Shown here: one piece after another, positions 4,064 through 49,150 of the stretch
Numbering within the stretch: the first letter of the stretch is position 1
Layout: each line of letters starts with the position of its first letter
NCBI GenBank assembly: GCA_016215315.1
Contig: JACRKG010000011.1
Location: 537-64,536 of the forward strand
Origin: Candidatus Woesearchaeota archaeon
Lineage (GTDB): Archaea; Nanobdellota; Nanobdellia; Woesearchaeales; ARS49
Length of the DNA: 64,000 nucleotides
Direction: 5' to 3'
Position numbers and translations under genes: made by a program
Notes under the pieces: model-generated
The model's database searches: none
What the model saw: the letters and a program-made list of their open reading frames with translations, nothing else
What the model was told of the DNA's origin: nothing

Positions 4064-4068
4064 TTTTT

Positions 4069-7852: not shown

Positions 7853-7931
7853 AGCTTATAGTTAATGGTTTGCAGCGATAAACTCATCTGCCATCCGACA
7901 CCTAGTAAAATTTACGGTACCGACCGATGCC
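7853..7931. repeat. intergenic repeat-family copy plus conserved 47-nt leader motif (CCATCCGACACCTAGTAAAATTTACGGTACCGACCGATGCC)
   Basis: AGCTTATAGTTAATGGTTTGCAG resembles the GTTTATAGTT..CAG family. The downstream motif is about 85% identical to 49097..49150. Confidence 0.5.
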
Positions 7932-11288: not shown

Positions 11289-11325
11289 GGTTTGTAGTTT
11301 ATAGTTTACGGTTCATAGTAAACTA
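11289..11325. repeat. intergenic repeat-family copy (GGTTTGTAGTTTATAGTTTACGGTTCATAGTAAACTA) with small hairpin
   Basis: Abuts the stop of 9667..11286. Contains TAGTTTAC/GTAAACTA inverted repeat. Confidence 0.6.
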
Positions 11326-15601: not shown

Positions 15602-15606
15602 AAAAA

Positions 15607-23345: not shown

Positions 23346-23434
23346 AGAAAGATTCTATCAATTACCTGATTTGTGTTTCACCAACGCCACAATCTTTATA
23401 AAAACCAATTTTCTTGTTCTATAAAGGTGATATT

Positions 23435-23599: not shown

Positions 23600-23601
23600 A
23601 A

Positions 23602-23633
23602 GGGTTTGAAGTTCACAGTTTATAGTTTGTAGG
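23602..23633. repeat. intergenic repeat-family copy (GGGTTTGAAGTTCACAGTTTATAGTTTGTAGG)
   Basis: Same family as 28381, 36512, 11289, 49061. Confidence 0.6.
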
Positions 23634-23639
23634 ACCTGA

Positions 23640-23800: not shown

Positions 23801-23855
23801 ATTTAAGTTAATCAAGAAAACAAGCAACATCCAGATAATTTTAGGTACAAATAAC

Positions 23856-24194: not shown

Positions 24195-24339
24195 AATATC
24201 TCCTCTTTTAGTAATATATTGGAAGCGTTATTTATAAATATTACTGTAAGTATTGATAAAAACTTTATTTGAGCAATCAACAGATATCAAAGGGGATCAA
24301 AATTTACGGTGTTTGAGGTCATTAAGTACTAAATATTTG

Positions 24340-24954
24340 TTAATTTTTTCCACCGTAAACTAGTATTAGCCCAACAATTGACAGAACAACACTAAATCCA
24401 ATTATGTGCAAGAAAAAGTATTGAAAGAACATTTGATTAAAAACTTGCACCATTACATAATTACCTGGAAACTGCCATTGATCAAATGCAAGCATTTCAT
24501 GAAATTTTGTGAACAAAAAATTAAAAGGCAGAATTGCTAATAACAAAATCATAACTAAATTAAGAATACTTCCATAAAAAATGATTACTCGATTTATCCT
24601 AAAAGTATAAACGAGTACCAAAATCAAAAACAAAACATTTAGCATAAACATTTTATCTCTTACCTCAAACATATGACTTACTTCTTCTTGCTGAAAGCCT
24701 TGAATGAAGTTAGTTTTGTACGTTAAGTAATCAAGTGTTTTTTGCCCATATTCTTGAGCTTGAGGATGAGCGTTGCTAAGTTCAAACAATAAATTATAAA
24801 ATTGAGCATTAAACGTCAAAAGAAACGCACTCAACAATAAAAGAAATAATGGAAAAACGATAATCAAAAATAAATCCTTCGTGCTTGCAAACTTTCGCCC
24901 CAAAACCATAAACCACAAACTACCAACATTTTTCTTACTTAATCTTTGCGCCAT
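24340..24954 (-). CDS. hypothetical integral membrane protein (5-6 TM)
   Basis: Hydrophobic helices. 20-nt overlap with metG stop. Confidence 0.5.
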   Translation of the reverse strand: MAQRLSKKNVGSLWFMVLGRKFASTKDLFLIIVFPLFLLLLSAFLLTFNAQFYNLLFELSNAHPQAQEYGQKTLDYLTYKTNFIQGFQQEEVSHMFEVRDKMFMLNVLFLILVLVYTFRINRVIIFYGSILNLVMILLLAILPFNFLFTKFHEMLAFDQWQFPGNYVMVQVFNQMFFQYFFLHIIGFSVVLSIVGLILVYGGKN

Positions 24955-27547: not shown

Positions 27548-27656
27548 TAAAATGATATATTCACGATTATTTTATAAAGTTTTTCACAAAAGTTATTCAT
27601 AACTCACTACGTTCGTCATGAATAACTTTTAAATAGATTAGGGGTGTTTTAATTCT

Positions 27657-28262
27657 GTGAAGCAATTAATTAGCAAAAATAACAATATTTGGGTATCTAG
27701 CTCTTTAGAAGAAGAGGTTTTACGAGAAAAAATCCTTAATTGTGACGCCGTTCTGAGTGATTTAGATGACACAGACACTAATCCTACCGCACCAATAATA
27801 ATTAGACAAGGAATTAAACGGTATTTTTACCGCCCTGAATTTATTACTTGGTGGATGAAATTAACAATCACAAACCAAATACTAAACCGAAGAGAACAAA
27901 GCGATGCATGGAAATTATACTCAAGCAAATTTATTGATGCAAAAGAAAGAAAAAGAATTAGAAAACAATTGACACCTCAAAGAGTGAATGACTTGTTATT
28001 TCCTGGAGTTAAAGAATTTTACTCTCTAATTACACCAGCATACAAAACTTATGTTACACGAAATCTTTACGAAGTTGGCGATGCTTTTGGATGCGTTCTG
28101 GGATTTGATGAAATTATTAGCGGTGCAAGAAATAAAGAAATCGCAGCAGCAGAATTTATTAATGCCCATCCTCAATTTAGAAAGTACTTAGTGAAAGGTG
28201 ATTCTCATCACGACGAAGGAATGATTGATGCGCTTAAATTCTACCAAAAAAAGGCAAAATAG
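27657..28262 (+). CDS. HAD-superfamily hydrolase-like protein
   Basis: DLDDT (motif I DxDxT) and GDSHHD (motif IV GDxxxD). Confidence 0.4.
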   Translation: MKQLISKNNNIWVSSSLEEEVLREKILNCDAVLSDLDDTDTNPTAPIIIRQGIKRYFYRPEFITWWMKLTITNQILNRREQSDAWKLYSSKFIDAKERKRIRKQLTPQRVNDLLFPGVKEFYSLITPAYKTYVTRNLYEVGDAFGCVLGFDEIISGARNKEIAAAEFINAHPQFRKYLVKGDSHHDEGMIDALKFYQKKAK

Positions 28263-28380
28263 ATTACGTTTTAGGAATATGGGTTTCTAAAACACCAACA
28301 GATAGAGCAAAATTCGACGTAAATATTGGACAAAATTATACTGGATTGGTTGAACTATTAAAGAAAAAAAGCCAGTAACT

Positions 28381-28446
28381 AGTTTATAGTTTGCAGTTTA
28401 TGGTTCACAGTCGTCCTATAAACTTCAAACTGTAAACTACAAACTT
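28381..28446. repeat. intergenic repeat-family copy forming a long imperfect hairpin
   Basis: AGTTTATAGTTTGCAGTTTATGGTTCACAG-N8-TATAAACTTCAAACTGTAAACTACAAACT. Arms are reverse complements with a few mismatches. Lies immediately 3' of tRNA-Pro. Confidence 0.7.
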
Positions 28447-28449
28447 AAA

Positions 28450-28524
28450 TGGGATCGGGGAGATTTGAACTCCCAATCTCACCCACCCCAAGGGTGAATC
28501 TTAACCAAGTTGGACTACGACCCC
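28450..28524 (-). tRNA. tRNA-Pro (anticodon GGG)
   Basis: Reverse complement GGGGTCGTAGTCC...CACCCTTGGGGTGGGTG...GGGAGTTCAAATCTCCCCGATCCCA: 7-bp acceptor, T-arm GGGAG/TTCAAAT/CTCCC, anticodon loop TTGGGGT. Confidence 0.85.
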
Positions 28525-28527
28525 AAA

Positions 28528-29679
28528 TTAAACAAAACTAACTTCCATTTCTAGTGCATCCCTTGTGGGATATTCTTCAACTACTGCCGGGATTAAGTTT
28601 TGTTTTTTTAAAAAACAAGCGTGTTTTTTTAGCAAACGTCTGTCTGTGATTAATCTTAATTTTACTTCGTCAACAAAAATTAAATCTTCAGATATTTTTA
28701 ATTGTGCTATTAATTTTTGTCTTAATTCTTCTAAAATTGGTAAGTACTTTTTTTTGTCTGCTTGTTCTAGTTTTTGTCTGTAGTTTAGTCCGGGGGTTAG
28801 TTCTGGTAAATAAATTGCTCCGCGGATTATTGTTCCTTCGTCAGTTACTTGGTCAAAACTTTTCTTAATGTTCTTTGCTCTTCGTTTTATTCTATTCTTT
28901 AATTGAACATTGTCTTTTAGTTTTGCAGTGCAGAAGTAAAGAGTCAATCCTGCATTTTTTGCTTCTTTCAATATTTCTAGTGCTAGTTCTGCGCTTCCTT
29001 TGACTGCGTAAGATAATTGGTTTTTTAGCATAAAACCTCTGCTTAAGTATTCACAATCATTTCTTTCTGACCATTCTAATTCATTCAAGTTTAGGAATTT
29101 TACTTTTTCTTTCATAAAATCTACCAGTTCTAGAATTTCTTTTTTCATTCCCGGAATACAAGGTATTTCTATGCCTACATCCCAATCATATTTTCTTGCC
29201 AATTCTATTTGCGGCCATAAAGTTTTGTCATATAGGTTTGCGTGAAATCTTATCTCATCAAGACCTGCTTCGTACAATTTTTTTAATCTTTCTTCATTGA
29301 CTAATCTGAAAGTAGTGTACAAGTGTGCATGAAATTTTTTGCCGAATTCTTTTTTTAAAAGCCTTAAGTACTCACAAACTCGGTCAACAACCACTAAAGG
29401 ATCTCCTCCAGTGATTCCTACTCCTTTTGCTTCAGTTAATCTTGCTTCTTCAAGAAGGTCTTCTGGTTTTTCTATCTTCCATTCATTTGCATAAATTACA
29501 TCTTTGTTTATTTTTTTATCACTTACAGGACAATAGAAGCATTTTAGTCCGCATAAACCCGTAATGAATAATACTAATTTTTGGCCTTTAATGCAATACT
29601 CGCATCCTTTGGCCATCCTTCCTTTAACTAAAGAAAAACATCCTGTATCGACAATGTTTTGAGCGGCTAATAATTCCAT
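28528..29679 (-). CDS. radical SAM domain protein (PflA-like activase fold) with long C-terminal extension
   Basis: CGLKCFYCP (CxxxCxxC) cluster motif, GGDP SAM-binding glycine motif. Confidence 0.75.
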   Translation of the reverse strand: MELLAAQNIVDTGCFSLVKGRMAKGCEYCIKGQKLVLFITGLCGLKCFYCPVSDKKINKDVIYANEWKIEKPEDLLEEARLTEAKGVGITGGDPLVVVDRVCEYLRLLKKEFGKKFHAHLYTTFRLVNEERLKKLYEAGLDEIRFHANLYDKTLWPQIELARKYDWDVGIEIPCIPGMKKEILELVDFMKEKVKFLNLNELEWSERNDCEYLSRGFMLKNQLSYAVKGSAELALEILKEAKNAGLTLYFCTAKLKDNVQLKNRIKRRAKNIKKSFDQVTDEGTIIRGAIYLPELTPGLNYRQKLEQADKKKYLPILEELRQKLIAQLKISEDLIFVDEVKLRLITDRRLLKKHACFLKKQNLIPAVVEEYPTRDALEMEVSFV

Positions 29680-29768
29680 AAGAATCAATATTTATTGCTT
29701 ATTTAAAAAAGTATTTACTGAACGCAAATAATCTAAAGTAGTTTATTTAAAGCTATCTTGCTTTCTAT

Positions 29769-30269
29769 TTGTTTATGGAAAATAAAAAATTCAAAAGACA
29801 AGATCTTAACAAATTAGAAGAAGTCGAATTACTAACATCAACAGTAGAACAAGAACCAACAGTTGAAGTATTTTCTCCAACAATAGAAAAAACACATTTG
29901 CAAAAAGTTTTGAAAGTTGTCAGAATGAGTTTGATGTACTTAAGTATTGGTGCTGCTTTTTATGGAGTTGTAGCTTACGCTCCTAAAGTTGCAGAAGTTG
30001 GAATTAGAAATGATCAAGTAAACAGTGAATTCAAGAGTGTTTATGACAACACAAGTTCAAAATACGCAGATACAAACAATGACGGAGTTGTTTCATCTCA
30101 AGAAATGGATTCTTTTGATAGCGCTTTCTTAACAAGCAATGGTTTTAAAGTTAGTGGAGAAGAAAGAATAAATCTAAAGTACGGCCCAATGCCTTACATG
30201 AAAGGAACTTTTGAAAGAGCACAGAAGGAAACTATCACTGAATTGTTAAAGAATTACCAGCCAAAATAA
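29769..30269 (+). CDS. hypothetical membrane-anchored protein
   Basis: One TM helix (MYLSIGAAFYGVVAY). Confidence 0.4.
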   Translation: MFMENKKFKRQDLNKLEEVELLTSTVEQEPTVEVFSPTIEKTHLQKVLKVVRMSLMYLSIGAAFYGVVAYAPKVAEVGIRNDQVNSEFKSVYDNTSSKYADTNNDGVVSSQEMDSFDSAFLTSNGFKVSGEERINLKYGPMPYMKGTFERAQKETITELLKNYQPK

Positions 30270-30307
30270 ATTATTAGAAAAATATCAGCCTCAATAAAAT
30301 CAAACTA

Positions 30308-31327
30308 TCAAGTCTTATTTAGTTTTTGTTCTGCTCCTTTTTTATAATCATCAAGAAATTTCATGTTATTAGAAACATATTCATATATAGTATTCACGAA
30401 AAAACCCATTGCTTGAGTTGCTTCTTCAAATTCTAGATCATTCATCATAATGCAATAAAATATTCTGCTAGCCTTAATATACATTATACCACAACTATGC
30501 AAGTATTTATTCTCTCCCTCATATTTTACTCCGAATTTTTGAGAAACTTTAACTTCAGGAGGTAAATTTGCAATTTTTTTTATGTCAAATACGGTGTTTG
30601 AAAGAAGGGATAAAATATACTCGGAATCTTGTGATTCAAGAATGGTAGATAAATAAATACTAGAAAAAACATTGTAGAATGATTTGGGTGTTGCAAGACC
30701 AGTGTCATAATCTTGGCCTGGTTTTGTTTTATTAATACTATCTTCAGTGTACATATCAAGATAACTAAAAATGAAATTTGCATCTTTAGGTTTTAGAATT
30801 TTGCTCAGCGCTCTAAAAGCAGTATCATCTGATTCTTGCAACATTTTTTCTAGAAGAACTTTCACGCTAAGTTCTTTATCAGTAGTTTTGTATAATGTTC
30901 CAAAATTAGCAGTTCTGTCTGAATCTTCTATTTTAATCAAATCATCAAGACCTATTTTACCTTCTTCTTTCATTTTCAGCACAAGTACCGCAGCTAAAAC
31001 TTTAACTAAGCTAGCAAAAGGATATCCTGTTCTTTCATTTATTCCTATGGAGGCACCATTTCTTAAGTTTTCAACATAAATTGAAGCAGTGAAGTTATTT
31101 TCTTGCATGAAAGACTCAAAAATCTTTTTCAAAGGAACATAATTAGTTATTAAAAAACTCTTAGGTTCTAACACTCCTGCAGCTATTCTGGGAGAAATAA
31201 AAGTAAAATCTTCTTTATTTGATTCAATAAAAGAATAATTATTGAAACAAATTATTGCAAGAAAAGACAAAAGCACTAGAATTAATATCAACTCAAAAAC
31301 TGCCACCCGTTTTAGATTAAATCTCAT
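30308..31327 (-). CDS. class A beta-lactamase-like serine hydrolase, membrane-anchored
   Basis: N-terminal TM. FASLVK contains S-x-x-K. Later SDN-like and KTG-like region. Confidence 0.55.
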   Translation of the reverse strand: MRFNLKRVAVFELILILVLLSFLAIICFNNYSFIESNKEDFTFISPRIAAGVLEPKSFLITNYVPLKKIFESFMQENNFTASIYVENLRNGASIGINERTGYPFASLVKVLAAVLVLKMKEEGKIGLDDLIKIEDSDRTANFGTLYKTTDKELSVKVLLEKMLQESDDTAFRALSKILKPKDANFIFSYLDMYTEDSINKTKPGQDYDTGLATPKSFYNVFSSIYLSTILESQDSEYILSLLSNTVFDIKKIANLPPEVKVSQKFGVKYEGENKYLHSCGIMYIKASRIFYCIMMNDLEFEEATQAMGFFVNTIYEYVSNNMKFLDDYKKGAEQKLNKT

Positions 31328-31410
31328 TCAACCCTGAAATAAAACACCCACATTTAAATCTTAGTTTTAGCTAAGAAACATTTTTAAATCTGGATTCGTT
31401 TTGGATTTTT

Positions 31411-32892
31411 ATGACTGACAAAAAAGGCTCTAAAGCAAATAAGCAGGACAATTTTAGTGAGTGGTATTCTCAGATTTGCGGTGAAACTGGAGCTAAGCTT
31501 GTTGATTTAAGGTATGATGTTCAAGGTTTTATTGTTCATCGCCCTTGGAGTATGCGAGTTTTAAGAAAGATTTATTCTTTTTTTGAAGAAGAAGTCGAGA
31601 AAGACAATCATGAACCAATGTTATTTCCAACAGTTATTCCTGAAGAACATTTATTAAAAGAAAAAGAACATGCAGGTTTTACTCCTGAAGTTTTCTGGGT
31701 CGAGTATGCGGGAGATAAAAAGTTAGAAAAACGATTAGCATTAAGACCTACTGGAGAAACACAAATTTATCCATTGTATTCTTTATGGATTAGAAGTTAT
31801 AATGATTTGCCTTTGAAAGGTTATCAATCTAGAATTACTACTTTTAGAAATGAAATGACTACGCGTCCTTTTTTGAGGGGCAGAGAATTTATGTTTTTTG
31901 AAACTCACGATGTCTTCGAAACCCACGACGAAGCCGTTTCTCAAATAAAAAAAGATTTAATCATGATGAAGAACACGATTCGTGATAAACTAAAAATTCC
32001 TTTTTTATTTTTCCAAAGACCTAAATGGGATGTATTTAAAGGAGCTGATGAAACTTTCACTTCAGACAGCATTCTTCCTGATGGTAAAAGAATTCAAGTT
32101 AGCAGCACTCATGATTTAGGGCATAATTTTGCTAAAGCATTTAATGTCCAATTTGTTGGAAAGGATGGAAAAAGAAGTTATGCTTTCCAGACTTGTTTTG
32201 GGCCTGGTATTTGGAGAATTTTTGGAACAATGATTGCAATTCACGGGGATGACCAAGGATTAATGCTTCCTTTCTGTGTTGCACCAGTGCAAGTTGTAAT
32301 TATTCCAATAACTTTTGTTAAAGATCCTGAAGCTAGTAAAAAAGTTCTTGAGCTTTCCAAAAAATTAGAAAGCGAACTAAAAAATTTAAATTATTCTGTG
32401 CTTGTTGATTTAACTAATAAAACTCCCGGTTTCAAATTTAATGAGTGGGAAATGAAGGGAGTTCCTATAAGAATAGAAATAGGTCCTAGAGATTTAGAAC
32501 AAAACCAAGTAACTGTTAGCGCTAGAACAAGTAAAGAAAAATTAGCAGTAAAAATTAATGAATTAAAAAATAAATTACCTGAACTTGCAGAACAAAACGA
32601 TAAAGTTTTAGAAGAAACCGCAATCAAATATTTCAAAGATAATATTAAAAATGCAAAAACTCTTGACGAAGTCAAGAGTATAATTAAAGACCATCGTGGT
32701 TTTGTAAGAATTCCTTTCTGCAGTGTTATGCTTGATGGCAAGAAGTGTGCCGAGAAATTAAAAACAGAAACTAACGGTGTTGACGTTTGCGGATTCTTAT
32801 TTGAAAAAGAAGAAAAATTAGCTAGTTCTGATACGTGCGCTGTTTGCGGAAAGAAAGCAACAAAGATAGTTTATGCTGCTAAGAGTGTTTGA
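31411..32892 (+). CDS. proS: prolyl-tRNA synthetase, archaeal/eukaryal type
   Basis: Class II motifs, C-terminal zinc-binding domain with CxxC...C. 493 aa. Confidence 0.9.
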   Translation: MTDKKGSKANKQDNFSEWYSQICGETGAKLVDLRYDVQGFIVHRPWSMRVLRKIYSFFEEEVEKDNHEPMLFPTVIPEEHLLKEKEHAGFTPEVFWVEYAGDKKLEKRLALRPTGETQIYPLYSLWIRSYNDLPLKGYQSRITTFRNEMTTRPFLRGREFMFFETHDVFETHDEAVSQIKKDLIMMKNTIRDKLKIPFLFFQRPKWDVFKGADETFTSDSILPDGKRIQVSSTHDLGHNFAKAFNVQFVGKDGKRSYAFQTCFGPGIWRIFGTMIAIHGDDQGLMLPFCVAPVQVVIIPITFVKDPEASKKVLELSKKLESELKNLNYSVLVDLTNKTPGFKFNEWEMKGVPIRIEIGPRDLEQNQVTVSARTSKEKLAVKINELKNKLPELAEQNDKVLEETAIKYFKDNIKNAKTLDEVKSIIKDHRGFVRIPFCSVMLDGKKCAEKLKTETNGVDVCGFLFEKEEKLASSDTCAVCGKKATKIVYAAKSV

Positions 32893-33021
32893 AACTTTGG
32901 AAAATCAACTCATTCTAAAAAAGGTCAAAAAATGCCTATTTTTGAAACAACACAAAAAAAACAGAAAAATATTTAAGCTTTAAAAGAAAGTAAATAGTTA
33001 AAAAGATAAAAGGGTGAAAGA

Positions 33022-34542
33022 ATGATAAAAAGAGTTAATATATATATATATATAATATTATTTTTGATTCTCGTTGCTGGTGTTTTAGCAGCACCGCTGC
33101 CAACTGTTAATGGAGATTCTGGTACTTGGGGCACAATACTTAATACATTTCTAGGTGTTTCTTTAGCAAGTGATGGAACTTTAAATTCTAATGTTGTTGG
33201 TACTGCTCAAATAACTGATGGAGTAATTACGACAAGTGATATTAGTGCTACAGCAGGCATAACAAGCGGACAAATCGCAGACGGAACAATCACTACAGAC
33301 GACATCGCCACAGACACTATTGCTGCAGCAGACATCGCAGCAGGAGCAGTTGGAACTTCAGAAATCGCAGACGGAGTCATCACAACAACAGACATTAGCT
33401 CCTCAGCAGGAATCACAAGCGCACAAATCGCCGATGCTACTATTGCCAATGCAGATATTAGCACTAGTGCTGCCATTGCTTTAAGTAAATTAGCTGCCGG
33501 AACTGACGGACAAATAATAGTTGTAGGTGTTTCTACGACCACAGTTCCTGCTTATGCAACAATGAGTGGCGATGCAACATTAAGCAACCTAGGAGCACTA
33601 GCAGTTTCAGATGACAGTCATGCGCATACTGCAAGCACAATTTCAGGACTTGGCACAGATGATATTTCTGGATTAAGTGCTGCCGATTTAAATGCTGACT
33701 TCGGCGACTTTACATGTACTGGAAGTGCAGCGGGTTGCACTGTGGATGCTAATGCTGTTGCTTTAGGTACTGATACTACTAATAACTATGTGGCTACTGT
33801 TGCGGATAGTGGTGCTGGAATATTTACTGTTTCAGGTAGTGGTTCTGAAAGTGCTACTGTAACTCTCGCCATCACTGCTGATATGATTGATGGTACTGAA
33901 TTGAAAGATTCATTGGCTCTTGATGCTGCTACAACGATTACTGGCACTACTGCTGGTGTTGGTTTAACTATAACATCAAACATTAACGCTGCTGCACTGA
34001 CTGTTACTAACGCCAATGTAGGGGGTTCTGTACTATCTCTCACTAGCTCTGGTGGTGGAACGTTACTATCTGCTCAAGGCGCTTGTTATGACGGCAATCT
34101 TGCAACTTGTGTTTTAAATGATTACGCAGAACTTTATCCAGCTAGTGAAAGTGTTGAACAAGGAAGTTTGGTATCAATTGATGATTCAAAAGAAGACTTA
34201 TTTGTTAAGACAACAAGAAAAAGTTATGATACTTCAGTTATAGGAATAGTGTCTACAAGTCCTGCCATAGTTATTGAAGGGGGCGCAATTAAATTAATGG
34301 GCGGAATTTATGCTCACAACCCTTTAAAACCTGCAATAGCTATGGCTGGAAGAGTTCCAGTAAAAGTAACTAATGAGAATGGACCCATAAAACCAGGAGA
34401 CTTGCTTGTTCCAAGCTCAACACCAGGTTATGCAATGAGATGTCCTGGAAGATTAGAGTGCATAGGAAGTGTTGTTGGAAAAGCATTAAGGCCGTTTAAA
34501 GAAAAAGAAGGCAAAGTTTTAGCATTAGTGATTAATAGCTAA
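33022..34542 (+). CDS. secreted surface protein with tandem about 20-aa tail-fibre-like repeats and a C-terminal beta domain
   Basis: Signal/anchor MIKRVNIYIYIILFLILVAGVLAAP. At least six repeats of the form ITTxDIxxxAGITSxQIADGxI. GC-rich codons (Ala/Thr/Gly). Confidence 0.6.
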   Translation: MIKRVNIYIYIILFLILVAGVLAAPLPTVNGDSGTWGTILNTFLGVSLASDGTLNSNVVGTAQITDGVITTSDISATAGITSGQIADGTITTDDIATDTIAAADIAAGAVGTSEIADGVITTTDISSSAGITSAQIADATIANADISTSAAIALSKLAAGTDGQIIVVGVSTTTVPAYATMSGDATLSNLGALAVSDDSHAHTASTISGLGTDDISGLSAADLNADFGDFTCTGSAAGCTVDANAVALGTDTTNNYVATVADSGAGIFTVSGSGSESATVTLAITADMIDGTELKDSLALDAATTITGTTAGVGLTITSNINAAALTVTNANVGGSVLSLTSSGGGTLLSAQGACYDGNLATCVLNDYAELYPASESVEQGSLVSIDDSKEDLFVKTTRKSYDTSVIGIVSTSPAIVIEGGAIKLMGGIYAHNPLKPAIAMAGRVPVKVTNENGPIKPGDLLVPSSTPGYAMRCPGRLECIGSVVGKALRPFKEKEGKVLALVINS

Positions 34543-34543
34543 A

Positions 34544-35470
34544 ATGAAAAAAATATTTTTTGTTTTATTAATTATCTTTTTGATTCCTGTAGTTTATGCG
34601 GGAGCATATGGTGCCGGTGCTTACGGTGCGGGAGATTATGGTGTTGGAGAGGCCGCTGCATCTCCTAGCACGACTAGTGAATCAAGAACAACAACAGAAA
34701 CAACTACGGAAGATACTGGAAGATTTGATCCTAAATCTTATCTTGGCTTTGTTGCAAATTTTATTGCTCCTGGAAGCATTGCAGAATTGAGTAAAACAAA
34801 TAAAATAACTAAGACAGTAACTGCAATTAAAGGCAGTTTAGATTCTGTTGTTTTATTCAGGTTAAATGCTCAAACACACACAGTTATGTTGGATAAAGTT
34901 GATGAGCAAACTAAAACTGTTTCGTTCATTTTAGCTTCGGAGCCTCAATTTTTTAGTTTGAAAGAGAATGAAAAAATGCAGTTTGATTTAGATGGAGATT
35001 TATTTGCTGAGACTGAAGTTTCTGCAGGCAACACTAATTATAGTAAATTAAGTACTGATGTGAGTATTTCTTGGGTAGAAAACCAGACAATGATAACGAC
35101 AGTTACAAAGCAAGAAAGCGAGACACCCTCCACTAAAAAAGAGATAACACCAGGCACAGAACTAAAAATTTCAGAAACAAAAAAAACAGAAACAATTACA
35201 GAACTAAAGAAGGAAGAATTAAAATTACAACCAAAAGATTTTGTATCTTTCAAAGAATTCTTTGAAAGTGCTAAAGAATCTCTCGAAAATGTTAAAACAC
35301 TTTTCGAGAAATTCACGAACAAGATTTTTGATGAAATAAAAAAACATCCAGAAGTAAATATGCTCATTCTAGAAATTGCTTCAGGAGTTGCCGTTTTTGT
35401 ATTAGTAATAACATTTGTATTGTTCAAAAGTCATCGCAAGAAGCGTAAAGAAAGAGTACAAGAAATATAA
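34544..35470 (+). CDS. surface-anchored protein: signal peptide, GAYGAG repeats, Thr-rich linker, C-terminal TM anchor
   Basis: Starts 2 nt after the previous stop. AGAYGAGAYGAGDYGVG repeats. C-terminal helix then KSHRKKRKER. Confidence 0.55.
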   Translation: MKKIFFVLLIIFLIPVVYAGAYGAGAYGAGDYGVGEAAASPSTTSESRTTTETTTEDTGRFDPKSYLGFVANFIAPGSIAELSKTNKITKTVTAIKGSLDSVVLFRLNAQTHTVMLDKVDEQTKTVSFILASEPQFFSLKENEKMQFDLDGDLFAETEVSAGNTNYSKLSTDVSISWVENQTMITTVTKQESETPSTKKEITPGTELKISETKKTETITELKKEELKLQPKDFVSFKEFFESAKESLENVKTLFEKFTNKIFDEIKKHPEVNMLILEIASGVAVFVLVITFVLFKSHRKKRKERVQEI

Positions 35471-35484
35471 ACCGTTAAGAACTA

Positions 35485-35874
35485 TCAATAATTTTGAACT
35501 TTTATTCCACGTATTCTTTTGAAATGTTCTTGATTTCTAGTTACAACTATATCCACGCCTTTACTCAGAGCAATTCCCGCAGTCAAACAATCACAATCCG
35601 AAATTTCTTTCCCGGATTTTATTAATTCTGCAGATATTTCAGCTGATTTTATGATTGAATTATTATCCAAAGAGAGCACTCTTAAATCTTCAAAAACTTC
35701 CATAACTTCTCTTAATTTAGGCAGAGACATTCCTCTCAAAAATAATCCTCTCATTAATTCATACATATTTATCTGAGTGGTAAGCAATGGACTTTTTGAC
35801 TCAATTAATTTAAGTGCATCTTCATTTCCTCTTGACAAATCAATTAAAAAAGTGGTGTCTAAAACTTTCATCAT
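35485..35874 (-). CDS. vapC: PIN-domain ribonuclease toxin VapC
   Basis: MKVLDTTFLIDL with conserved acidic residues of the PIN fold. 129 aa. Confidence 0.75.
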   Translation of the reverse strand: MMKVLDTTFLIDLSRGNEDALKLIESKSPLLTTQINMYELMRGLFLRGMSLPKLREVMEVFEDLRVLSLDNNSIIKSAEISAELIKSGKEISDCDCLTAGIALSKGVDIVVTRNQEHFKRIRGIKVQNY

Positions 35875-36101
35875 AACCTCGATCTAATCATTTTTATATT
35901 TTTGGATCTTATTTTTTTCAAATCTTCAAGCATCTTTTCTCCTTCTGTTTCGGATATTATTCCAAACAAATCTTTCCAAGTTTTTGCTTCTTTTTTAGAA
36001 AAAACTCGAACTATCTCCTCTGAAAAACTTTCATTTTCAAATTTATTATTAAAAAGCAAGCCATATGAATCTTCAGTGATTGTTATAGTTTTTGTTGTCA
36101 T
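35871..36101 (-). CDS. vapB: VapB-type antitoxin (76 aa)
   Basis: MTTKTITITEDSYGLL N-terminal DNA-binding beta-strand motif. 4-nt overlap with vapC. Start at the internal Met. Confidence 0.5.
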   Translation of the reverse strand: MTTKTITITEDSYGLLFNNKFENESFSEEIVRVFSKKEAKTWKDLFGIISETEGEKMLEDLKKIRSKNIKMIRSRL

Positions 36102-36206
36102 AAACATACGTGTATGTTTACTTGTATATAAACTTTTCGTGCCTTTAAAAACTATCTTCAATAAGCAAGAAAAGCTTAAATACCCATTTTTCTTTTTGTA
36201 TGTATT

Positions 36207-36509
36207 GTGAAAATAACCATCGATACTAAGTTGGATTCAAAAGAGGAGATAAGGAGAGCTGTTGAATTATTAAATAATTTAATGGGAACTAGGAATAGTT
36301 CTGAGCACAGAAATATTTTTGATGATAATACTTCTTCCAGTGTTAGCAATCCTCTCAACATGTTCGATACTAGTAATTCGAGTCCTCCACCAAGTAGTTC
36401 TAGTAGTTCATCAAATGCGTTTAATTCTATGTTTAATAATGAGCCTGAATTAAAAGAAGAAAAGAATGATGACAATGATGATTCAGTTCCTGAGATAGAA
36501 TTCTACTAA
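36207..36509 (+). CDS. hypothetical Ser-rich acidic protein
   Basis: Low-complexity (SSPPPSSSSSSS), acidic C-terminus. Confidence 0.35.
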   Translation: MKITIDTKLDSKEEIRRAVELLNNLMGTRNSSEHRNIFDDNTSSSVSNPLNMFDTSNSSPPPSSSSSSSNAFNSMFNNEPELKEEKNDDNDDSVPEIEFY

Positions 36510-36511
36510 AA

Positions 36512-36588
36512 TAGTTTATAGTTCACAGTTTATGGTTTATAGGTCAATAAGTTTTTTACTGTAAACTCCGAACTACAAACTATAAACT
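36512..36588. repeat. intergenic repeat-family copy forming a long hairpin between convergent genes; abuts both flanking stop codons
   Basis: AGTTTATAGTTCACAGTTTATGGTTTATAGG-N17-CTGTAAACTCCGAACTACAAACTATAAACT. Confidence 0.7.
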
Positions 36589-36589
36589 T

Positions 36590-36913
36590 TTATTCTAAAT
36601 CTAGAATGTATCCGTCGTATTTTTCGTTAAAGTATAAATCAATTAGTGCTTCTACTGCTTCTAATTGTCCGTGAAGTTCTTCTATGTTGCTTATTGCTTT
36701 GGATACTCTTCGCGAGGCAAGTGCGAATTTTTCTTTTTCGTTAATTGTAGGTGTTGCTGGTGCCACTATTTCACTCAAAGTTTTTCCTGAAGAATAATTT
36801 TTTTTCAGAACACTGTATTCTCTTAAAACAGTTGCTATGTATGCAATATCACTTTTTACTGGTTTTAGTGCTTTGACGATGCTCTTTTGGAGACCGTCAA
36901 GTTCATCAGCCAT
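36590..36913 (-). CDS. hypothetical alpha-helical protein at the distal end of the ribosomal/RNAP cluster
   Basis: 107 aa, no CxxC. Not RpoN/RpoK-like. Confidence 0.45.
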   Translation of the reverse strand: MADELDGLQKSIVKALKPVKSDIAYIATVLREYSVLKKNYSSGKTLSEIVAPATPTINEKEKFALASRRVSKAISNIEELHGQLEAVEALIDLYFNEKYDGYILDLE

Positions 36914-36914
36914 T

Positions 36915-37310
36915 TTATCTGTAGCTTTTTTGTCTTTTTGATCTTGCTTTACCGTGAGTGTTTGGCTTTCTACTTTCTCTTTGCCTTACATCCGGAACTA
37001 ACAAAGTTCTATCATAATCTAAGAATTGTTGGCGTAATTTTTTGTTGTGTTCTGCTAAAACTTTTGATACTGCAACTCTTATAGCATCAGATTGGGAGCT
37101 CATTCCTCCGCCAGAAACGCTTACTTGAATATTAACTTTACTTGCTGTTTCTCCTGCAATTTGTAGTGGTTCTTTTATTTTATCTTTATACATTTGAGTA
37201 GAATAATTTTCTAGTAATTGTGAATTAATTCTAACTATTCCTGTGCCTTCGCTTAGTGTTGCTCTTGCGATTGCTTTTTTTCTTGTTCCTACTTCATGAA
37301 TTACTTTCAT
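36915..37310 (-). CDS. rps9: 30S ribosomal protein S9 (uS9)
   Basis: Conserved uS9 core and basic C-terminal tail ...KARSKRQKSYR. Confidence 0.9.
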   Translation of the reverse strand: MKVIHEVGTRKKAIARATLSEGTGIVRINSQLLENYSTQMYKDKIKEPLQIAGETASKVNIQVSVSGGGMSSQSDAIRVAVSKVLAEHNKKLRQQFLDYDRTLLVPDVRQRESRKPNTHGKARSKRQKSYR

Positions 37311-37822
37311 CTTTTACCACCTATTGATTTAATGACATCAGCAATACTTGTGAATTTGACAACTCCTCTTTCTGTAACGTCTGCATTTTTTAGTGTTATT
37401 GCTTTTCCTTTAAATTCTTCAGGTACGCCTAAATAACACATTACTCTTTGAAAAGCTTCTCTACCTCTAGTTCTTTTGAATGGGAGCATTTTTTTTATTA
37501 TTCTTCTTAAAAATCGGTCGGGTAATCTTGATAAGAATGGTCCTTTGTTTTGTTTTCCTATTTCTCTTCTTTGGTATCTGTATTTTTCTGCAACTTGGTA
37601 TTTGTCGCCAGTTATTATTGCTTTTTCACTGTTAACAACTGCAACTTTGTTGCCTAGTAATGCTTGTTTTGCAACCCAGGATGCGAAACGTCCTACGATT
37701 AAGTTTGAAGCATCAAGTACTATTAAGTTTCTAGGAGTTGATTCTTGTTCTTTTGGTTCAGAATGTTCTTTTGGTTCATGAGTTTTTTCTTTCATGATTG
37801 GTTTTTTTTCTATTTTGTTCAT
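37307..37822 (-). CDS. rpl13: 50S ribosomal protein L13 (uL13) with N-terminal basic extension
   Basis: VIDASNLIVGRFASWVAKQALLGNKVAVVN core motif. Confidence 0.9.
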   Translation of the reverse strand: MNKIEKKPIMKEKTHEPKEHSEPKEQESTPRNLIVLDASNLIVGRFASWVAKQALLGNKVAVVNSEKAIITGDKYQVAEKYRYQRREIGKQNKGPFLSRLPDRFLRRIIKKMLPFKRTRGREAFQRVMCYLGVPEEFKGKAITLKNADVTERGVVKFTSIADVIKSIGGKR

Positions 37823-38178
37823 CCTAGTATCCTCACGTCTTTACCTTTTGGATTGTTTTTTAGTAATTCTTGAATTGTTAAACATTTTCCTTTTTGTTCA
37901 ATTTGGTTTTTTGCATCACTTGAAAATGATAGTGCTGCTACGTTTACTTTGTGATCAAGATTTCCACTGCCTAATACTTTTCCTGGGACTATAACTGTTT
38001 CATTGTCTTTTGTGAATCGGTTAATTCTTGAAACGTTAACAACTCTTCTTTTTCTTGTTGGTAATTCTAGATCGAGAGCTATTCTATTCCACAAGTCAGC
38101 TTTTTGTAATGCAGATTCTTTCTTTAACAAACTAATTAATTCTTGCAAATGTTCGTTTGTTGGCCCTGTACGTTTCAT
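37819..38178 (-). CDS. rpl18e: 50S ribosomal protein L18e (eL18)
   Basis: MKRTGPTNEHLQELISLLKK typical L18e N-terminus. Start at the internal Met, because the ORF-track start would overlap the tRNA. Confidence 0.8.
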   Translation of the reverse strand: MKRTGPTNEHLQELISLLKKESALQKADLWNRIALDLELPTRKRRVVNVSRINRFTKDNETVIVPGKVLGSGNLDHKVNVAALSFSSDAKNQIEQKGKCLTIQELLKNNPKGKDVRILG

Positions 38179-44059: not shown

Positions 44060-44206
44060 TTTTTTATTAAAGGAAAGTTTTAATTAACAATAACAAAATA
44101 AATATTTCCATCAAAAAGATCAAAATCATCATTGAGTCTATGTGATGTTTGTTGCAAAATGTTTGTACTCGTCGATAAACTTGAATCATACCACACATTT
44201 AGCACT

Positions 44207-44325
44207 AATTCTTTATATGTTTTTCTAGAAAGATTTCTCAGAAAAGTGAGAAATTTTTCCAAAAAAATGAGAAAATTTCTCAAAAAATGGAAATATTTTC
44301 CAAAAAATTAGAAAAAATTTACTGA
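44207..44325. repeat. about 110-nt repeat element copy 1: TTCTTTATATG-TTTCTAGAAA plus 4-5 units of 21-nt period built on palindrome GAGAAATTTCTC
   Basis: Near-identical copy at 51671..51770 in direct orientation. Confidence 0.7.
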
Positions 44326-44344
44326 ATTGAATTAGACTTATTTT

Positions 44345-46945: not shown

Positions 46946-47479
46946 TCAAAACTTATCACTGATATCTTCAGTCCTAAAACCTTTAACAAGAGCCACTCCA
47001 TCTATTGTGGAATGATTGTAAGTCTCTACATCTACCATTCTAAGTATTTGATGAACTTTAACTATTGGAGGCCATAGTTGAATCCAGGTACCTTTGGGAG
47101 TTATTTCGTCATTTACATTCTCTATCTGATTGCGACATTCTGGATAACACATAATAAGCAACAAACTTTCACCACCATAATCTTTTGCAAGAATATGAGA
47201 ATACCATGAGCTATCATTCAGTCCAGTTTCTAAAGTTGGCACACCATCAATAATTGCACATTCATCTTTCTCATAAACAATTCTCCTACCATCTCTAACC
47301 AAATATTGATAAATTGCATCATCAAGTTTGGCAGTGCTCATACACCCCCTATTCGCCATAGTAGTTTTTCTTTTATCAAATACTTTTCTTACTGAATCAT
47401 AGCCTTGCAAAAAGGTCGTAGAATTAATTCCAGATACTATATAACCTTTATAACCTAAATTTTTTGACATTTTTATCAC
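46946..47479 (-). CDS. hypothetical protein (177 aa) with conserved-looking Cys/His residues
   Basis: Clear ORF. No family assigned. Confidence 0.45.
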   Translation of the reverse strand: MIKMSKNLGYKGYIVSGINSTTFLQGYDSVRKVFDKRKTTMANRGCMSTAKLDDAIYQYLVRDGRRIVYEKDECAIIDGVPTLETGLNDSSWYSHILAKDYGGESLLLIMCYPECRNQIENVNDEITPKGTWIQLWPPIVKVHQILRMVDVETYNHSTIDGVALVKGFRTEDISDKF

Positions 47480-48370: not shown

Positions 48371-49060
48371 ATGGAAACACAAACAAAAACACACGAACAT
48401 AATCATGAAAAGCATAATCATAGTTGCAACAACACTCATTCGACGCCAAGCGACCCTCTGACACCCAGTAACATTTCGACACCTAATGATACCAAGGACA
48501 ACGATTTTGGAGTAGTCAAAATCACTAAAAGTATGACTATTGGTGAGCTTGTGCAAACGTATCCTTCTTGCGCTGAAGTTTTAATGGAGGCTGGAGTTCA
48601 TTGCGTAGGTTGCGGTGCAGCTTTTTGGGAAACAATAGAACAAGGACTTAAAGGCCACGGAATGAGTGATGAAGACGTCGATGAAGTGGTTAAACAATTA
48701 AATGATGCAATTCCTAAAGATGCAGGCGGAAGCAATGATACTGTTGTCGTTACTGAAAAAGCGGCAGAAAAATTAAAAGACATTCTTAAGGAACAAAAAA
48801 AAGAAGGCTACGGATTAAGAATTGAAGTTCTTCCAGGAGGATGTTCTGGATTCCAGTATGCTTTTGATTTCGAAAATGAAAAGAAAGAAAATGATACAGT
48901 AATAGAAGTTAGCGGAGTTAATTTTTTTGTCGATAATGAAAGCATAAAAATGCTTAGAGGAGCAAGAATTGATTACGTTGACAGCTTGCAAGGTGCTGGA
49001 TTCAAAATAAGCAATCCTAATGCAAAAAGCACTTGCGGTTGCGGACAGTCGTTTAGTTAG
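48371..49060 (+). CDS. fusion protein: His-rich N-terminus + DUF1858 (hybrid-cluster-associated redox disulfide domain) + HesB/IscA-type Fe-S cluster insertion domain
   Basis: HEHNHEKHNHSCNNTH. TIGELVQTYPSCAEVLMEAGVHCVGCG (DUF1858). C-terminal IscA signature CSGF...CGCGQSF. Confidence 0.65.
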   Translation: METQTKTHEHNHEKHNHSCNNTHSTPSDPLTPSNISTPNDTKDNDFGVVKITKSMTIGELVQTYPSCAEVLMEAGVHCVGCGAAFWETIEQGLKGHGMSDEDVDEVVKQLNDAIPKDAGGSNDTVVVTEKAAEKLKDILKEQKKEGYGLRIEVLPGGCSGFQYAFDFENEKKENDTVIEVSGVNFFVDNESIKMLRGARIDYVDSLQGAGFKISNPNAKSTCGCGQSFS

Positions 49061-49150
49061 AAATTTACGGTTTGTAGTTCACAGTGAAAAACTCAGCGGC
49101 CATTCGACACCAAGTAATATTTTGATACCGAAATGATGTCTCGGACGGCA
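49061..49150. repeat. intergenic repeat-family copy (AAATTTACGGTTTGTAGTTCACAG) plus conserved 47-nt leader motif
   Basis: CCATTCGACACCAAGTAATATTTTGATACCGAAATGATGTC matches 7891..7931. Imperfect stem GCCATTCGA / TCGGACGGC. Confidence 0.55.

Follow-up and report, generated by a model that had tools for sequence, protein, structure and literature searches.

Two convergent genes of the 64-kb window (the whole stretch of DNA that we analysed), which comes from a Candidatus Woesearchaeota genome, are each followed, on their own strand, by a short tandem array of heptamers: a 100-aa gene on the + strand and, on the - strand, a 107-aa gene that is the last of the operon uS13-uS4-uS11-RpoD-L18e-uL13-uS9 (Table 1). 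The + strand array is identical in the independent Logan contig L152 and has a T6 run on its 3' side (36553-36558), and the segments 36513-36547 and 36561-36588 pair into a hairpin with a z of about -5. Both arrays belong to a repeat family of tandem heptamers (RGTTYRN, consensus AGTTTAT) that occupies nine places in the window, beginning at 7853, 11289, 23603, 28381, 36513 and 49062 on the + strand and at 36588, 28445 and 24921 on the - strand. The original prediction had listed five copies of a repeat family at gene ends; the family is real and does adjoin gene ends, but its copies number nine.

Table 1. Heptamer arrays and promoter-like element of the window, in order of position.
Feature	Units or sequence	Position	Strand	Context
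Weak 3-unit array	AGCTTAT AGTTAAT GGTTTGC	7853..7873	+	divergent spacer, no upstream same-strand gene
Array	GGTTTGT AGTTTAT AGTTTAC GGTTCAT AGT	11289..11319	+	2 nt past TAA 11284-11286 of 539-aa gene
Array	GGTTTGA AGTTCAC AGTTTAT AGTTTGT AGG	23603..23633	+	3 nt past TAA 23597-23599 of 54-aa histone-fold gene
Array	AGTTTGT GGTTTAT GGTTTTG	24901..24921	-	13 nt past TAA 24937-24935 of MetRS
Array	AGTTTAT AGTTTGC AGTTTAT GGTTCAC AGT	28381..28411	+	2 nt past TAA 28376-28378
Array	AGTTTGT AGTTTAC AGTTTGA AGTTTAT AGG	28415..28445	-	starts 4 nt past 3' end of tRNA-Pro(GGG) (28449-28525, - strand)
Array	AGTTTAT AGTTCAC AGTTTAT GGTTTAT AGG(TCAA)	36513..36547	+	3 nt past TAA 36507-36509 of 100-aa gene (36207-36509)
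Convergent partner array	AGTTTAT AGTTTGT AGTTCGG AGTTTAC	36561..36588	-	1 nt past TAA 36592-36590 of 107-aa gene
Array	(AGTTAGA) AATTTAC GGTTTGT AGTTCAC AGT	49055..49085	+	at DUF1858-IscA gene end
Promoter-like element	AAACTCAnnnGCCATYCGACACC + A/T-rich box	49086..49122	+	3' of array

The arrays hold 3-5 units with a mode of 4 (4 in five or six of the nine and 3 in the remainder, a small sample) and measure 21-35 nt. The pattern RGTTYRNRGTTYRNRGTT, allowing at most one mismatch, matched the window 19 times as compared to 0.47 expected, and 20 of 21 strict two-unit matches fell within the nine arrays, about one being expected by chance. TRF recovered periods of 7 and 14 from the window, 14-nt super-periods are present within arrays, and the order of units is different in every copy. 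Across the 33 units, the three letters of GTT are intact in 32, 32 and 33 cases, position by position; positions 1, 5, 6 and 7 vary, in 27-42% of units, and departures from AGTTTAT comprise 38 transitions and 6 transversions. We considered and rejected the possibility that the search pattern itself produced the invariant GTT: two-unit remnants would be expected from broken arrays, and outside the arrays a single match of this kind exists, which is the chance level. The units contain GG at most, and since G3 tracts are absent they lack the four G-tracts of a potential G-quadruplex; T tracts reach TTT, with a single TTTT in the 24921 array. Rfam searches of the window at the gathering threshold, and of 23300-24300 at E<=1, returned two tRNAs only and nothing at the arrays.

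Eight of the nine arrays begin 1-13 nt beyond a same-strand gene end, one of these genes being the tRNA-Pro. From stop codon to first good heptamer, the gap is 1-3 nt at 11284, 23597, 28376, 36507, 49058 and 36592(-), and 13 nt at 24937(-). Array and adjoining gene end are co-oriented in 8/8 cases (p = 0.004), and where a single array sits in a longer spacer, as three do, it lies closer to the stop than chance would readily give (combined p = 0.0035). Divergent spacers contain one array of the nine, in one of 16 such spacers, and two full inverted pairs occupy convergent ends (28381/28445 and 36513/36588). A hairpin or bidirectional terminator was considered as the core feature and rejected, as single arrays do not fold. 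The gene at 11332-11673, which converges on the 539-aa gene, carries on its own strand a T7 run and one AGTTTAC unit. Between tandem genes, the stop is followed by the array and then by the promoter-like element, ahead of the next gene. This element lies 3' of two arrays (49086..49122 and 7874-7913), the 7853 array sitting in a ~80-nt stretch common to 49062-49140; a third copy, at 57442-57459(-), is preceded by a T5 run instead of an array. The element is outside the repeat, and shows that an array or a T-run comes between the stop and the next promoter.

The original prediction placed the stop of the upstream gene inside or directly against the repeat, and at its five sites the gap is indeed 1-3 nt; the stop, however, lies upstream of the good heptamers. 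In the DUF1858-IscA gene the native TAG (49058-49060) is overlapped by the degenerate first unit of the array 49055..49085. The stop earlier given as 28372 is the TAA at 28376-28378, where a frameshifted gene of the 258-aa type (27657-28378) truly ends, the ORF listed there being only its frameshifted tail. The original prediction had every frame closed by a stop in the first ~14 nt of the repeat, but the copy cited for this, at 36507, closes frames 0 and 2 only: TAA at 36507 (frame 0), TAG at 36512 (frame 2) and TAG at 36519 (frame 0), with frame 1 open for more than 40 nt. Counted from the stop, all frames are closed within 17 nt at 0/6 array-bearing CDS ends, within 20 nt at 1/6 and within 33 nt at 2/6; the 28376 copy also has three-frame closure, which overall occurs at only 1-2 of 7 CDS ends and is not a property of the family. 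Each array contains 0-3 TAGs, which arise at the junction of two units (...TAT followed by AG...), and the 24921 array is free of stop codons in every frame.

Alignment with orthologues, the check that the original prediction had named, likewise failed to bear out the proposal that the repeat supplies the gene's stop: the stop is upstream of the heptamers and conserved in array-free orthologues, and four genes keep both C-terminus and stop position without an array. The 539-aa gene ends in HGMTTW, as compared to HGMLAW, HRMLTW and HGMLTW in array-free orthologues, and its orthologues in L153, L155, L157 and L158 have the same stop with the array absent. The gene at 36507 ends in PEIEFY (HHIQFY in an array-free orthologue) and the histone-like gene in RKTVMSKDL (RKTVMAKDL); the histone-like orthologue in L155 ends at the same position and continues with TTATTTTTTG. 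All IscA orthologues end in CGCGQSF followed by S, N or H and the stop. At 28376 the stop position is kept to within one codon and the last residues differ. Judged by these alignments, the stops of array-bearing genes are native and ancestral.

What sits past these stops in relatives was often a T run. In 7/9 orthologous comparisons, a run of at least five Ts lies within ~25 nt of the gene end in the relative where the window has an array; three of the seven concern the tRNA-Pro in as many relatives, one each the histone-like gene and the gene at 36507, and two the 539-aa gene (2/4 relatives). The tRNA-Pro genes of relatives B, C and D have T5-T6 runs in the array's place, and in L165 and L122 runs of T6-T9 close the ribosomal operon. 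Within the window itself, runs of at least five Ts occur at 1/8 array-bearing ends versus 12/26 other ends, a difference in the expected direction that is not significant (Fisher p = 0.12). On this comparative evidence, the arrays occupy the place of the oligo-T terminators (T5-T9) of relatives. A consensus scan of 22000-38000 for bacterial promoters and intrinsic terminators (GC-rich hairpin plus T run) flagged no array, though it was uninformative in that its counts stood at the level of shuffled sequence; we do not class the arrays as such terminators, and the host is an archaeon.

Two gene ends could be followed across relatives with arrays. At the MetRS end, the window has 3 units, relative C (L163) 6, relative D (L165) 3-5 and relative B (L164) none, and the array is kept across genomes only 73-77% identical in MetRS protein. 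The 24921 array falls within the ORF of the downstream Lit-like gene, provided that this starts at ATG 24954, and the Lit-like ORF is open and in frame in genomes A, B and C. The MetRS-end array is probably translated as part of the 5' region of the next gene, and could therefore be at most a partial terminator there. At the IscA end, the window and relative C both have arrays, with different units, that of relative C being a 4-unit array with an inverted partner that has no upstream gene on its own strand; relative D has a perfect (GGTTTGT)3 antisense in the IscA N-terminal coding region, and an array within a coding low-complexity linker. From these alignments, the MetRS and IscA ends retain an array at the same place across genomes, while unit order and number change. 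The array-bearing assemblies are the HZA97 MAG of the window, GCA_053530895.1 and GCA_016213425.1, and the array-free relatives GCA_053533315.1 and GCA_040960315.1. Real arrays were absent from 31 uS9-anchored JGI metagenome loci (188 kb, up to 67% identity), which serve as array-free outgroups only, and arrays were also absent from relative B (~27 kb) and from further Woesearchaeota loci (~58 kb). The gain of arrays at gene ends relative to other Woesearchaeota is real.

The arrays are an archaeal case of an already known, still unexplained kind of repeat, the heptamer repeats near stop codons. Their closest counterparts are the G-rich heptameric simple sequence repeats of Xanthomonas (GGGAATC) and Nostoc (GGGGAYT) (Rehm et al. 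2015, PMC4692102), which share several features with them: heterogeneous tandem 7-nt units with conserved positions and a clear 4-unit mode; placement within 50 bp downstream of the stop on the sense strand, with frequent convergent inverted pairs and under-representation between divergent genes; and associated genes that are functionally unrelated, with length and sequence varying between related species. By contrast, the unit in the window is A/T-rich without G-tracts, so that a G-quadruplex account of the 4-unit preference is inapplicable here; the host is archaeal, the arrays stand in place of oligo-T terminators, and orientation, mixed in Xanthomonas (30-35% each way), is 8/8. TAACTGA heptamer direct repeats of marine Beggiatoaceae, cyanobacteria and Bacteroidetes (MacGregor 2015, PMC4679880), cyanobacterial STRR heptamers and Mrazek's long simple sequence repeats likewise form dispersed, lineage-specific intergenic arrays, each with 2-6 copies of a single heptamer, beside unrelated neighbours, but TAACTGA repeats lie just upstream of start codons, with a suggested role in translation initiation, and the arrays described here just downstream of stops.

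A pattern scan for GTTYRNR arrays returned bacteria only among the matches listed (at least 118), which has no bearing on archaeal distribution, and the pattern forces at least 4 units, so that lengths are not comparable with those in the window. The bacterial arrays have the same degenerate unit and are often inverted pairs, and (GTTTATA)n in Prevotellaceae equals the window consensus; they differ in coming from a wide range of phyla, in each of which the unit takes a form of its own. Among the 118 listed, a long same-strand ORF ended within 40 nt upstream in 43 and an opposite-strand ORF in 23, ORF ends in GC-rich genomes being partly artefacts. Rfam found tRNAs only at 18 of these bacterial loci, and no match came from searching the literature for archaeal terminators made of heptamer repeats.

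We consider it about as probable as not (roughly 0.5) that the arrays, a heptanucleotide simple-sequence family (RGTTYRN)3-6, sit in the terminator slot and act as a U-rich 3'-end signal, a role suggested by sequence comparison. Of the combined stop module envisaged in the original prediction, the translation-stop part falls away; the transcription-stop part is plausible in view of the T-run slot in relatives and the one tRNA. Arrays would arise, and keep changing, as 7- and 14-nt blocks slip or are duplicated within T-rich sequence past gene ends, a process of which the 14-nt super-periods and the three identical GGTTTGT units in relative D are possible signs. The transcript of an array (four GUUU or GUUC blocks, 7 nt apart) would still be a U-rich 3'-end or termination signal for archaeal RNA polymerase, so that sense orientation would persist. 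At convergent genes, each gene would contribute one array, and the hairpin would be incidental. Termination at arrays would probably need aCPSF1/FttA and may often be leaky, like that of the leaky internal operon terminators that are described as common in archaea (PMC10450193).

The archaeal termination signal consists of U-rich tracts read by aCPSF1 (Li et al. 2021, PMC8716108), and the arrays resemble such oligo-U terminators in their position directly past a stop or tRNA, in strand, and in being U-rich and multi-tract. In Methanococcus maripaludis, however, aCPSF1 needs two U4 tracts and leaves U3 tracts unbound in vitro (PMC8716108), and the arrays offer U3 tracts at 7-nt spacing and a single U4, short of at least two U4 tracts. 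Also against a terminator are the 7853 array and the inverted partner in relative C, neither of which has an upstream same-strand gene, and the antisense coding-region array in relative D. Moreover, slippage alone leaves the invariant GTT and the usual 4 units unexplained.

A less probable but still serious account is that the arrays are functionless slippage products on T-rich low-complexity DNA, tolerated behind genes and oriented by inheritance from a T-rich terminator. Their absence from the 188 kb of distant relatives, the ~58 kb of other Woesearchaeota loci and the ~27 kb of relative B fits neutral turnover, as do the differing unit order and number at orthologous sites, the perfect triplicate units and the array within a coding low-complexity linker, both in relative D, and the in-frame array within the Lit-like ORF. 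Among the long simple-sequence repeats of prokaryotes, moreover, heptamers form the most abundant class, with slippage proposed as their origin (Mrazek 2007, as cited in PMC4679880), and the Xanthomonas and Nostoc heptamers have been described without a function being found (PMC4692102). The invariance of GTT counts against neutral decay, because such decay would hit all positions, whereas GTT survives in 32-33 of 33 units and four other positions vary, almost only by transitions. Nor would neutrality predict survival of the MetRS-end array at 73-77% protein identity, a narrow unit number (3-5, mode 4) rather than a broad one, or an orientation of 8/8; and because gene ends with an array mostly lack a T-run terminator, their transcripts must be ended by something else. 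The GTT evidence could instead point to a periodic binding platform, on which an oligomeric protein reads GUU or GTT every 7 nt, in RNA or DNA, and controls 3' processing, stability or factor-dependent termination. We regard this reading, which is by analogy throughout, as doubtful, and rate just as low the proposal that a factor-read 3'-end signal (GUUY four times in 7-nt phase, bound by an oligomeric RNA-binding protein) displaced oligo-U in this DPANN lineage. Candidate readers might be, for example, the four KH domains of the aCPSF1/FttA dimer or stacked heptameric Sm-like rings. HutP reads UAG every 7 nt, TRAP is another known analogue, and the Sm site RAUUUGUGR resembles the heptamer unit. 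A binding platform would accommodate the strict 7-nt phase of GTT with a purine/pyrimidine pattern kept elsewhere, the preference for 4 units, which unrelated bacterial heptamers share (PMC4692102), and the placement on one strand of the transcripts, a tRNA among them; but no candidate protein was found in the window, arrays offer no covariation or structure to go by, and in relatives they also occur in coding DNA and antisense.

The original prediction also likened the repeat to Correia elements or RPEs inserting at gene ends. A miniature mobile element of this kind, or a REP-like one, could account for the dispersed copies, which are absent from most relatives, for the palindromic pairs (28381/28445, 36513/36588 and in relative C), the ~80-nt stretch of array plus promoter-like element at two unrelated loci, and the one in-frame occurrence within an ORF, as with RPEs. 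We nevertheless find it improbable. All-against-all blastn of 320-nt flanks detected heptamers only in common, except for the pair 7853/49062, and on these grounds a larger element or MITE was rejected; terminal inverted repeats, target-site duplications and a conserved core are all lacking, and reading of the flanks revealed no direct repeat bracketing any array. The single arrays 23603, 49062 and 24921 lack inverted ends and are unfolded (z +0.2 to +1.4), hairpins in the window being confined to convergent ends, where each arm belongs to its own gene. Unit order differs per copy, unlike copying from a master element, and at ~30 nt the arrays, in which single-arm copies are the rule and a conserved body is lacking, are far from the 100-150 nt of Correia elements, Rickettsia palindromic elements and REP/BIME, which they resemble as small dispersed repeats at gene ends, some palindromic and one within an ORF. 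Least probable of all is a fail-safe three-frame translation stop that also provides the gene's own stop: TAG is frequent in arrays, these begin 1-3 nt past the stop, and a degenerate unit overlaps the stop at 49058, but closure is reached at so few CDS ends, the stops and C-termini are ancestral, and the 24921 array is stop-free and probably translated. An array following a tRNA, furthermore, implies a role that is not translational. The orthologue comparison, named as the test in the original prediction, refutes this reading, and we infer that the arrays are neither a translation-stop device nor a transposable element.

Independent of function, these A/T-rich heptamers share the anatomy of the Xanthomonas and Nostoc repeats (~4 units, post-stop sense strand, convergent pairs and fast turnover). 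We argue from this that the anatomy is general to heptamer repeats and that G-quadruplexes are an insufficient explanation of it; were a factor-read signal to prove true, the preference for 4 units and for the first 50 nt after the stop in Xanthomonas, Nostoc and other bacteria would be explained without a G-quadruplex. For annotation, the arrays mislead gene callers, as ORFs run on through them, and stop-rich sequence beside a stop is prone to over-interpretation. If the arrays are 3'-end signals, as we favor, an archaeal lineage can swap its oligo-U terminator for phased short U-tracts, and a wider definition of terminators would be called for in annotating DPANN and other uncultured archaea.

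At 36507-36520, the TAA of a 100-amino-acid gene and the three nucleotides AAT precede the opening unit of a tandem heptamer array reading AGTTTAT AGTTCAC AGTTTAT GGTTTAT AGG; the site is base-for-base identical in an independent Logan contig (L152). Scanning the window unit by unit for RGTTYRN (consensus AGTTTAT) revealed nine arrays of 3-5 units each; Tandem Repeats Finder reports a period of 7, sometimes 14, at these sites, and repeat grouping places them in families D8 and D10. The original prediction was thus right that a repeat family exists at gene ends, while its count of five copies overlooked three minus-strand arrays and the weak copy at 7853. Within the window, RGTTYRNRGTTYRNRGTT (≤1 mismatch) has 19 matches against 0.47 expected, and 20 of 21 strict two-unit matches fall inside the nine arrays (~1 by simulation). 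Of the 33 units, 32 retain G2, 32 retain T3 and all 33 retain T4; positions 1, 5, 6 and 7 vary, and deviations from AGTTTAT comprise 38 transitions and 6 transversions. The invariant GTT is no artefact of the search pattern, because decayed arrays should leave two-unit remnants and matches outside the arrays are at chance level. Beyond the heptamers the copies have no common sequence, with one exception: 7853 and 49062 share an ~80-nt stretch made up of the array and a promoter-like element. Hairpins with z of -5 to -7 occur only at the converging co-oriented arrays 28381/28445 and 36513/36588; a small hairpin lies at 11289, and single arrays showed no folding. No Rfam family matches the arrays of the window or of 18 similar bacterial loci.

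Two other repeats lie in spacers of the window: tandem 20-21-nt units (AGAAATTTTTCCAAAAAAATG-like; 3-4 copies) at 44194-44335 and 51657-51776, with a common 73-nt flank (89% identity), and a 54-nt direct repeat (...AACTTTAAATAATCAACCRAATAAATC..., 81% identity) at 3316-3369 and 4016-4069, in two spacers 700 nt apart. A further duplication (15413-15602 / 15952-16143; 541-nt-spaced, 76-78% identity) covers the 3' ends of adjacent paralogous genes.

The arrays follow functionally unrelated genes: those for a 539-aa protein without assigned function (identical to HZA97_01505 of a Candidatus Woesearchaeota MAG), a histone-fold protein, MetRS, tRNA-Pro(GGG) and a DUF1858-IscA fusion, a frameshifted 258-aa-type gene, the 100-aa gene, and the last gene of the uS13...uS9 operon. 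Ribosomal proteins and RpoD in the window are of archaeal type. Array orientation is that of the adjoining gene end in 8/8 cases (p = 0.004), and the three single arrays with longer spacers lie nearer to the stop than uniform placement would predict (combined p = 0.0035). The 7853 array sits in a divergent spacer.

It had been proposed that the repeat opens with stop codons in all three frames and supplies the stop of the upstream gene. At the copy cited for this, we found TAA at 36507 (frame 0), TAG at 36512 (frame 2) and TAG at 36519 (frame 0), with frame 1 running >40 nt without a stop. Counted from the stop codon, all frames are closed within 17, 20 and 33 nt at 0/6, 1/6 and 2/6 array-bearing CDS ends, compared with 1/64, 1/64 and 6/64 other gene ends; the copy at 28376 is also closed in all three frames, and the 24921 array contains zero stops in any frame. 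Stops are enriched in arrays because the unit junction reads ...TAT-AG..., and closure of all three frames does not characterise the heptamer family. Nor does the repeat provide the genes' stops: the gap from stop codon to first good heptamer is 1-3 nt for six CDSs and 13 nt for MetRS, and solely at 49058 is a TAG overlapped by a unit, the degenerate AGTTAGA.

Array-free orthologues, the test named in the original prediction itself, keep C-termini and stop positions. The 539-aa protein ends ...HGMTTW-TAA in the window and ...HGMLAW, ...HRMLTW, ...HGMLTW or ...HGMLSF, each then TAA, in four array-free relatives (60-76% identity). The gene at 36507-36520 ends ...PEIEFY (L122 homologue, ...HHIQFY), the histone-fold protein ...RKTVMSKDL (equal-length L155 orthologue, ...RKTVMAKDL), and CGCGQSF[S/N/H] terminates every IscA orthologue inspected. 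Since orthologues without arrays end alike, C-termini and stop positions are ancestral and the arrays arrived behind them: the observation of repeats at gene ends was borne out in part, and its headline interpretation is refuted. The ORF cited at 28372, whose TAA lies at 28376-28378, proved to be the 3' part of a gene with a frameshift in an A7 run; its C-terminus is ...LLKKKSQ vs ...LLKKKVKD in the intact orthologue of relative C (GCA_053530895.1).

The region 27540-28378, which precedes the 28381 array, appears to be a degenerating version of the 258-aa gene intact in C, with the frameshift at ~28246-28252 and, near its 5' end, a 54-nt insertion carrying in-frame stops and a perfect 13-bp hairpin (AAAAGTTATTCAT...ATGAATAACTTTT, about 27589-27631). 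The ~220 nt between the histone-fold gene and a convergent 112-aa gene (23634-23855) look G+C-rich for the genome and match no Rfam family at a threshold as loose as E≤1; in relatives C and B, at most a few nt separate the two genes. This stretch could represent an insertion or an RNA gene missed by annotation.

Relatives carry oligo-T runs directly 3' of the orthologous gene ends (see table). T≥5 was found in the relative where the window has an array in 7/9 orthologous comparisons. Within the window, T≥5 lies near 1/8 array-bearing ends vs 12/26 other ends with a spacer of ≥30 nt, a difference in the expected direction that does not reach significance (p = 0.12). In the tandem-gene cases (n=2), the array is followed by the promoter-like element (CGACACC and an A/T box) of the downstream gene; the element occurs once more at 57442-57459, there with a T5 run in place of the array.

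Heptamer arrays of the window and sequences behind orthologous gene ends in relatives
Feature	Location	Strand	Basis or sequence
Heptamer arrays	7853, 11289, 23603, 28381, 36513, 49062	+	unit-by-unit scan
Heptamer arrays	36588, 28445, 24921	-	unit-by-unit scan
539-aa gene end	L155		TAA-ATTTTTATT
539-aa gene end	L157		TAA-A7-TTTTTTATTTTT
Histone-like gene end	L155		TAA-TTATTTTTTG
End of homologue of gene at 36507-36520	L122		TAG-AATTTTTG
tRNA-Pro end	L164 (relative B)		T6
tRNA-Pro end	L165 (relative D)		T5
tRNA-Pro end	L163 (relative C)		T4 then T6
After uS9	L165		T6, T5, T6, T8
After uS9	L122		T9

The promoter-like element reads ACTCnnnnGnCCnTYCGACACC then WAnnAAWATTT (7874-7926, 49083-49140 and 57442-57480 (-)) and lies 20-70 nt upstream of three unrelated genes: a Na+/H+ exchanger, a metallophosphoesterase and 56520-57422. 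The orthologous exchanger promoter in relatives reads CGATACC-TTTTTAAA. In array-free L153 (8190-8240) and L122 (4240-4300), a conserved leader hairpin (AAAGAGGCAnCGC...GCnGGTCTCTTTTTG, then AAAAAGAGG-ATG/TTG) precedes unrelated genes, where it may occlude the ribosome-binding site.

The uS9-anchored metagenome loci (188 kb), further Woesearchaeota loci (~58 kb), the sequence covered from relative B (~27 kb) and the MetRS end of L167 are all free of arrays. Two closer genomes, C and D (GCA_016213425.1), have them. In C (IscA 95%, MetRS 77% identity), IscA is followed by TAG-T-AGTTCAC AGTTTAT AGTTTAC GGTTTAC-AG, with an inverted partner array 30 nt beyond that has no upstream gene on its strand, and MetRS by six units; in D (MetRS 73%), 3-5 units follow MetRS. 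Array position is therefore kept at the MetRS end (A, the genome of the window, C and D) and the IscA end (A and C), with unit order and number wholly different. Growth through slippage or duplication is suggested by the 14-nt super-periods and by a set of three identical GGTTTGT units in D. Relative C also has a duplicated tRNA-Pro 3' end (AAATCTCCCCGATCCCA; L163 8202-8335) 110 nt past the tRNA, suggestive of an integration scar, and a 5.4-kb island with integrase, AbiEii and Bro-N (L160 3664-9035) between orthologues of window genes 46946-47479 and 47598-48080.

Downstream of MetRS, the ATG of a Lit-like ORF lies inside the MetRS 3' end, and the ORF reads across the 24921 array. The distance from the MetRS stop to a conserved TTTTCC is a multiple of 3 in A (78 nt), B (60 nt; T5 runs at this spot) and C (81 nt); in D it is 74 nt and the Lit-like frame is broken. 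Translation probably runs through the window's array here, which would then be no more than a leaky terminator. Relative D carries (GGTTTGT)3GGTTTGC antisense in the N-terminal coding region of the IscA fusion (L166 4875-4902 (-)), a low-complexity, His/Thr/Asn-rich region where it encodes ...ANHKPQTTN...; family arrays can therefore occupy coding low-complexity linkers. Together with the C partner and the 7853 array, these cases show a simple-sequence repeat able to settle wherever it is tolerated. MetRS itself (24935-27547, -) contains a PheRS-beta-type B3_4 domain (residues 584-687) beside its C-terminal tRNA-binding domain, common to the 871-874-aa orthologues of C and D and absent from the 647-652-aa orthologues of the B-like clade.

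We propose, at roughly 50% probability for the whole reading, that a heptanucleotide simple-sequence family would arise and turn over through slippage within the T-rich DNA that follows gene ends, its sense orientation persisting because the U-rich, 7-nt-phased transcript may still work as a 3'-end or termination signal; stop codons within arrays would be incidental. The nature and position of the arrays, the native stops, the arrays in place of T-runs and the kept positions despite turnover are observed directly, while slippage as the origin and termination as the function are inferred. Counting against termination, the arrays carry U3 tracts only, and aCPSF1 of M. maripaludis requires two U4 tracts and leaves U3 unbound (PMC8716108). 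A purely neutral repeat, in keeping with arrays in coding DNA and set against the uniform sense orientation at gene ends, is somewhat unlikely. The 7-nt period and constant GTT could suit a periodic platform for a bound protein, an idea we consider unlikely, with arrays of relatives also found in coding DNA and in antisense orientation. The inverted pairs with hairpins recall a MITE-like element; with nothing but heptamers in common among nearly all copies, this is quite improbable. A fail-safe stop, to which the stop-bearing unit junctions would lend themselves, is hardly credible beside the native stops and open frames.

Heptamer repeats are known elsewhere, Mrazek's work, as summarised in PMC4679880, describing heptamers as the commonest long simple-sequence repeats. 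Closest to the window arrays are GGGAATC and GGGGAYT in Xanthomonas and Nostoc (Rehm et al., 2015; PMC4692102), which lie ≤50 bp from the stop on the sense strand, at times overlapping it. Convergent inverted pairs are frequent among them, divergent spacers seldom contain them, they differ from species to species, and no function was identified for them. Their four-unit preference was linked to G-quadruplex formation, which is impossible in the A/T-rich window arrays. TAACTGA arrays stand just upstream of start codons (MacGregor, 2015; PMC4679880). Our search for literature on heptamer repeats as archaeal terminators found no papers. When a single genome of each species was scanned for GTTYRNR (≥4 units), the matches listed came from many bacterial phyla and were often paired in inverted orientation; of 118 arrays among them, 43 lie directly behind a same-strand ORF vs 23 behind an opposite-strand ORF. 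The listed matches include Prevotella and other Bacteroidota, Acidobacteriota, Cyanobacteria, Saccharibacteria, Verrucomicrobia and Streptomyces, with unit flavour differing by lineage and without Rfam families; at five Prevotella loci (L023, L032, L038, L083, L095) inverted arrays surround a conserved ~45-nt core (ATGATTAC...). The window arrays are thus a new archaeal, A/T-rich heptamer repeat of an already known class whose function is unexplained, and what goes beyond that class is their seat in the terminator slot.
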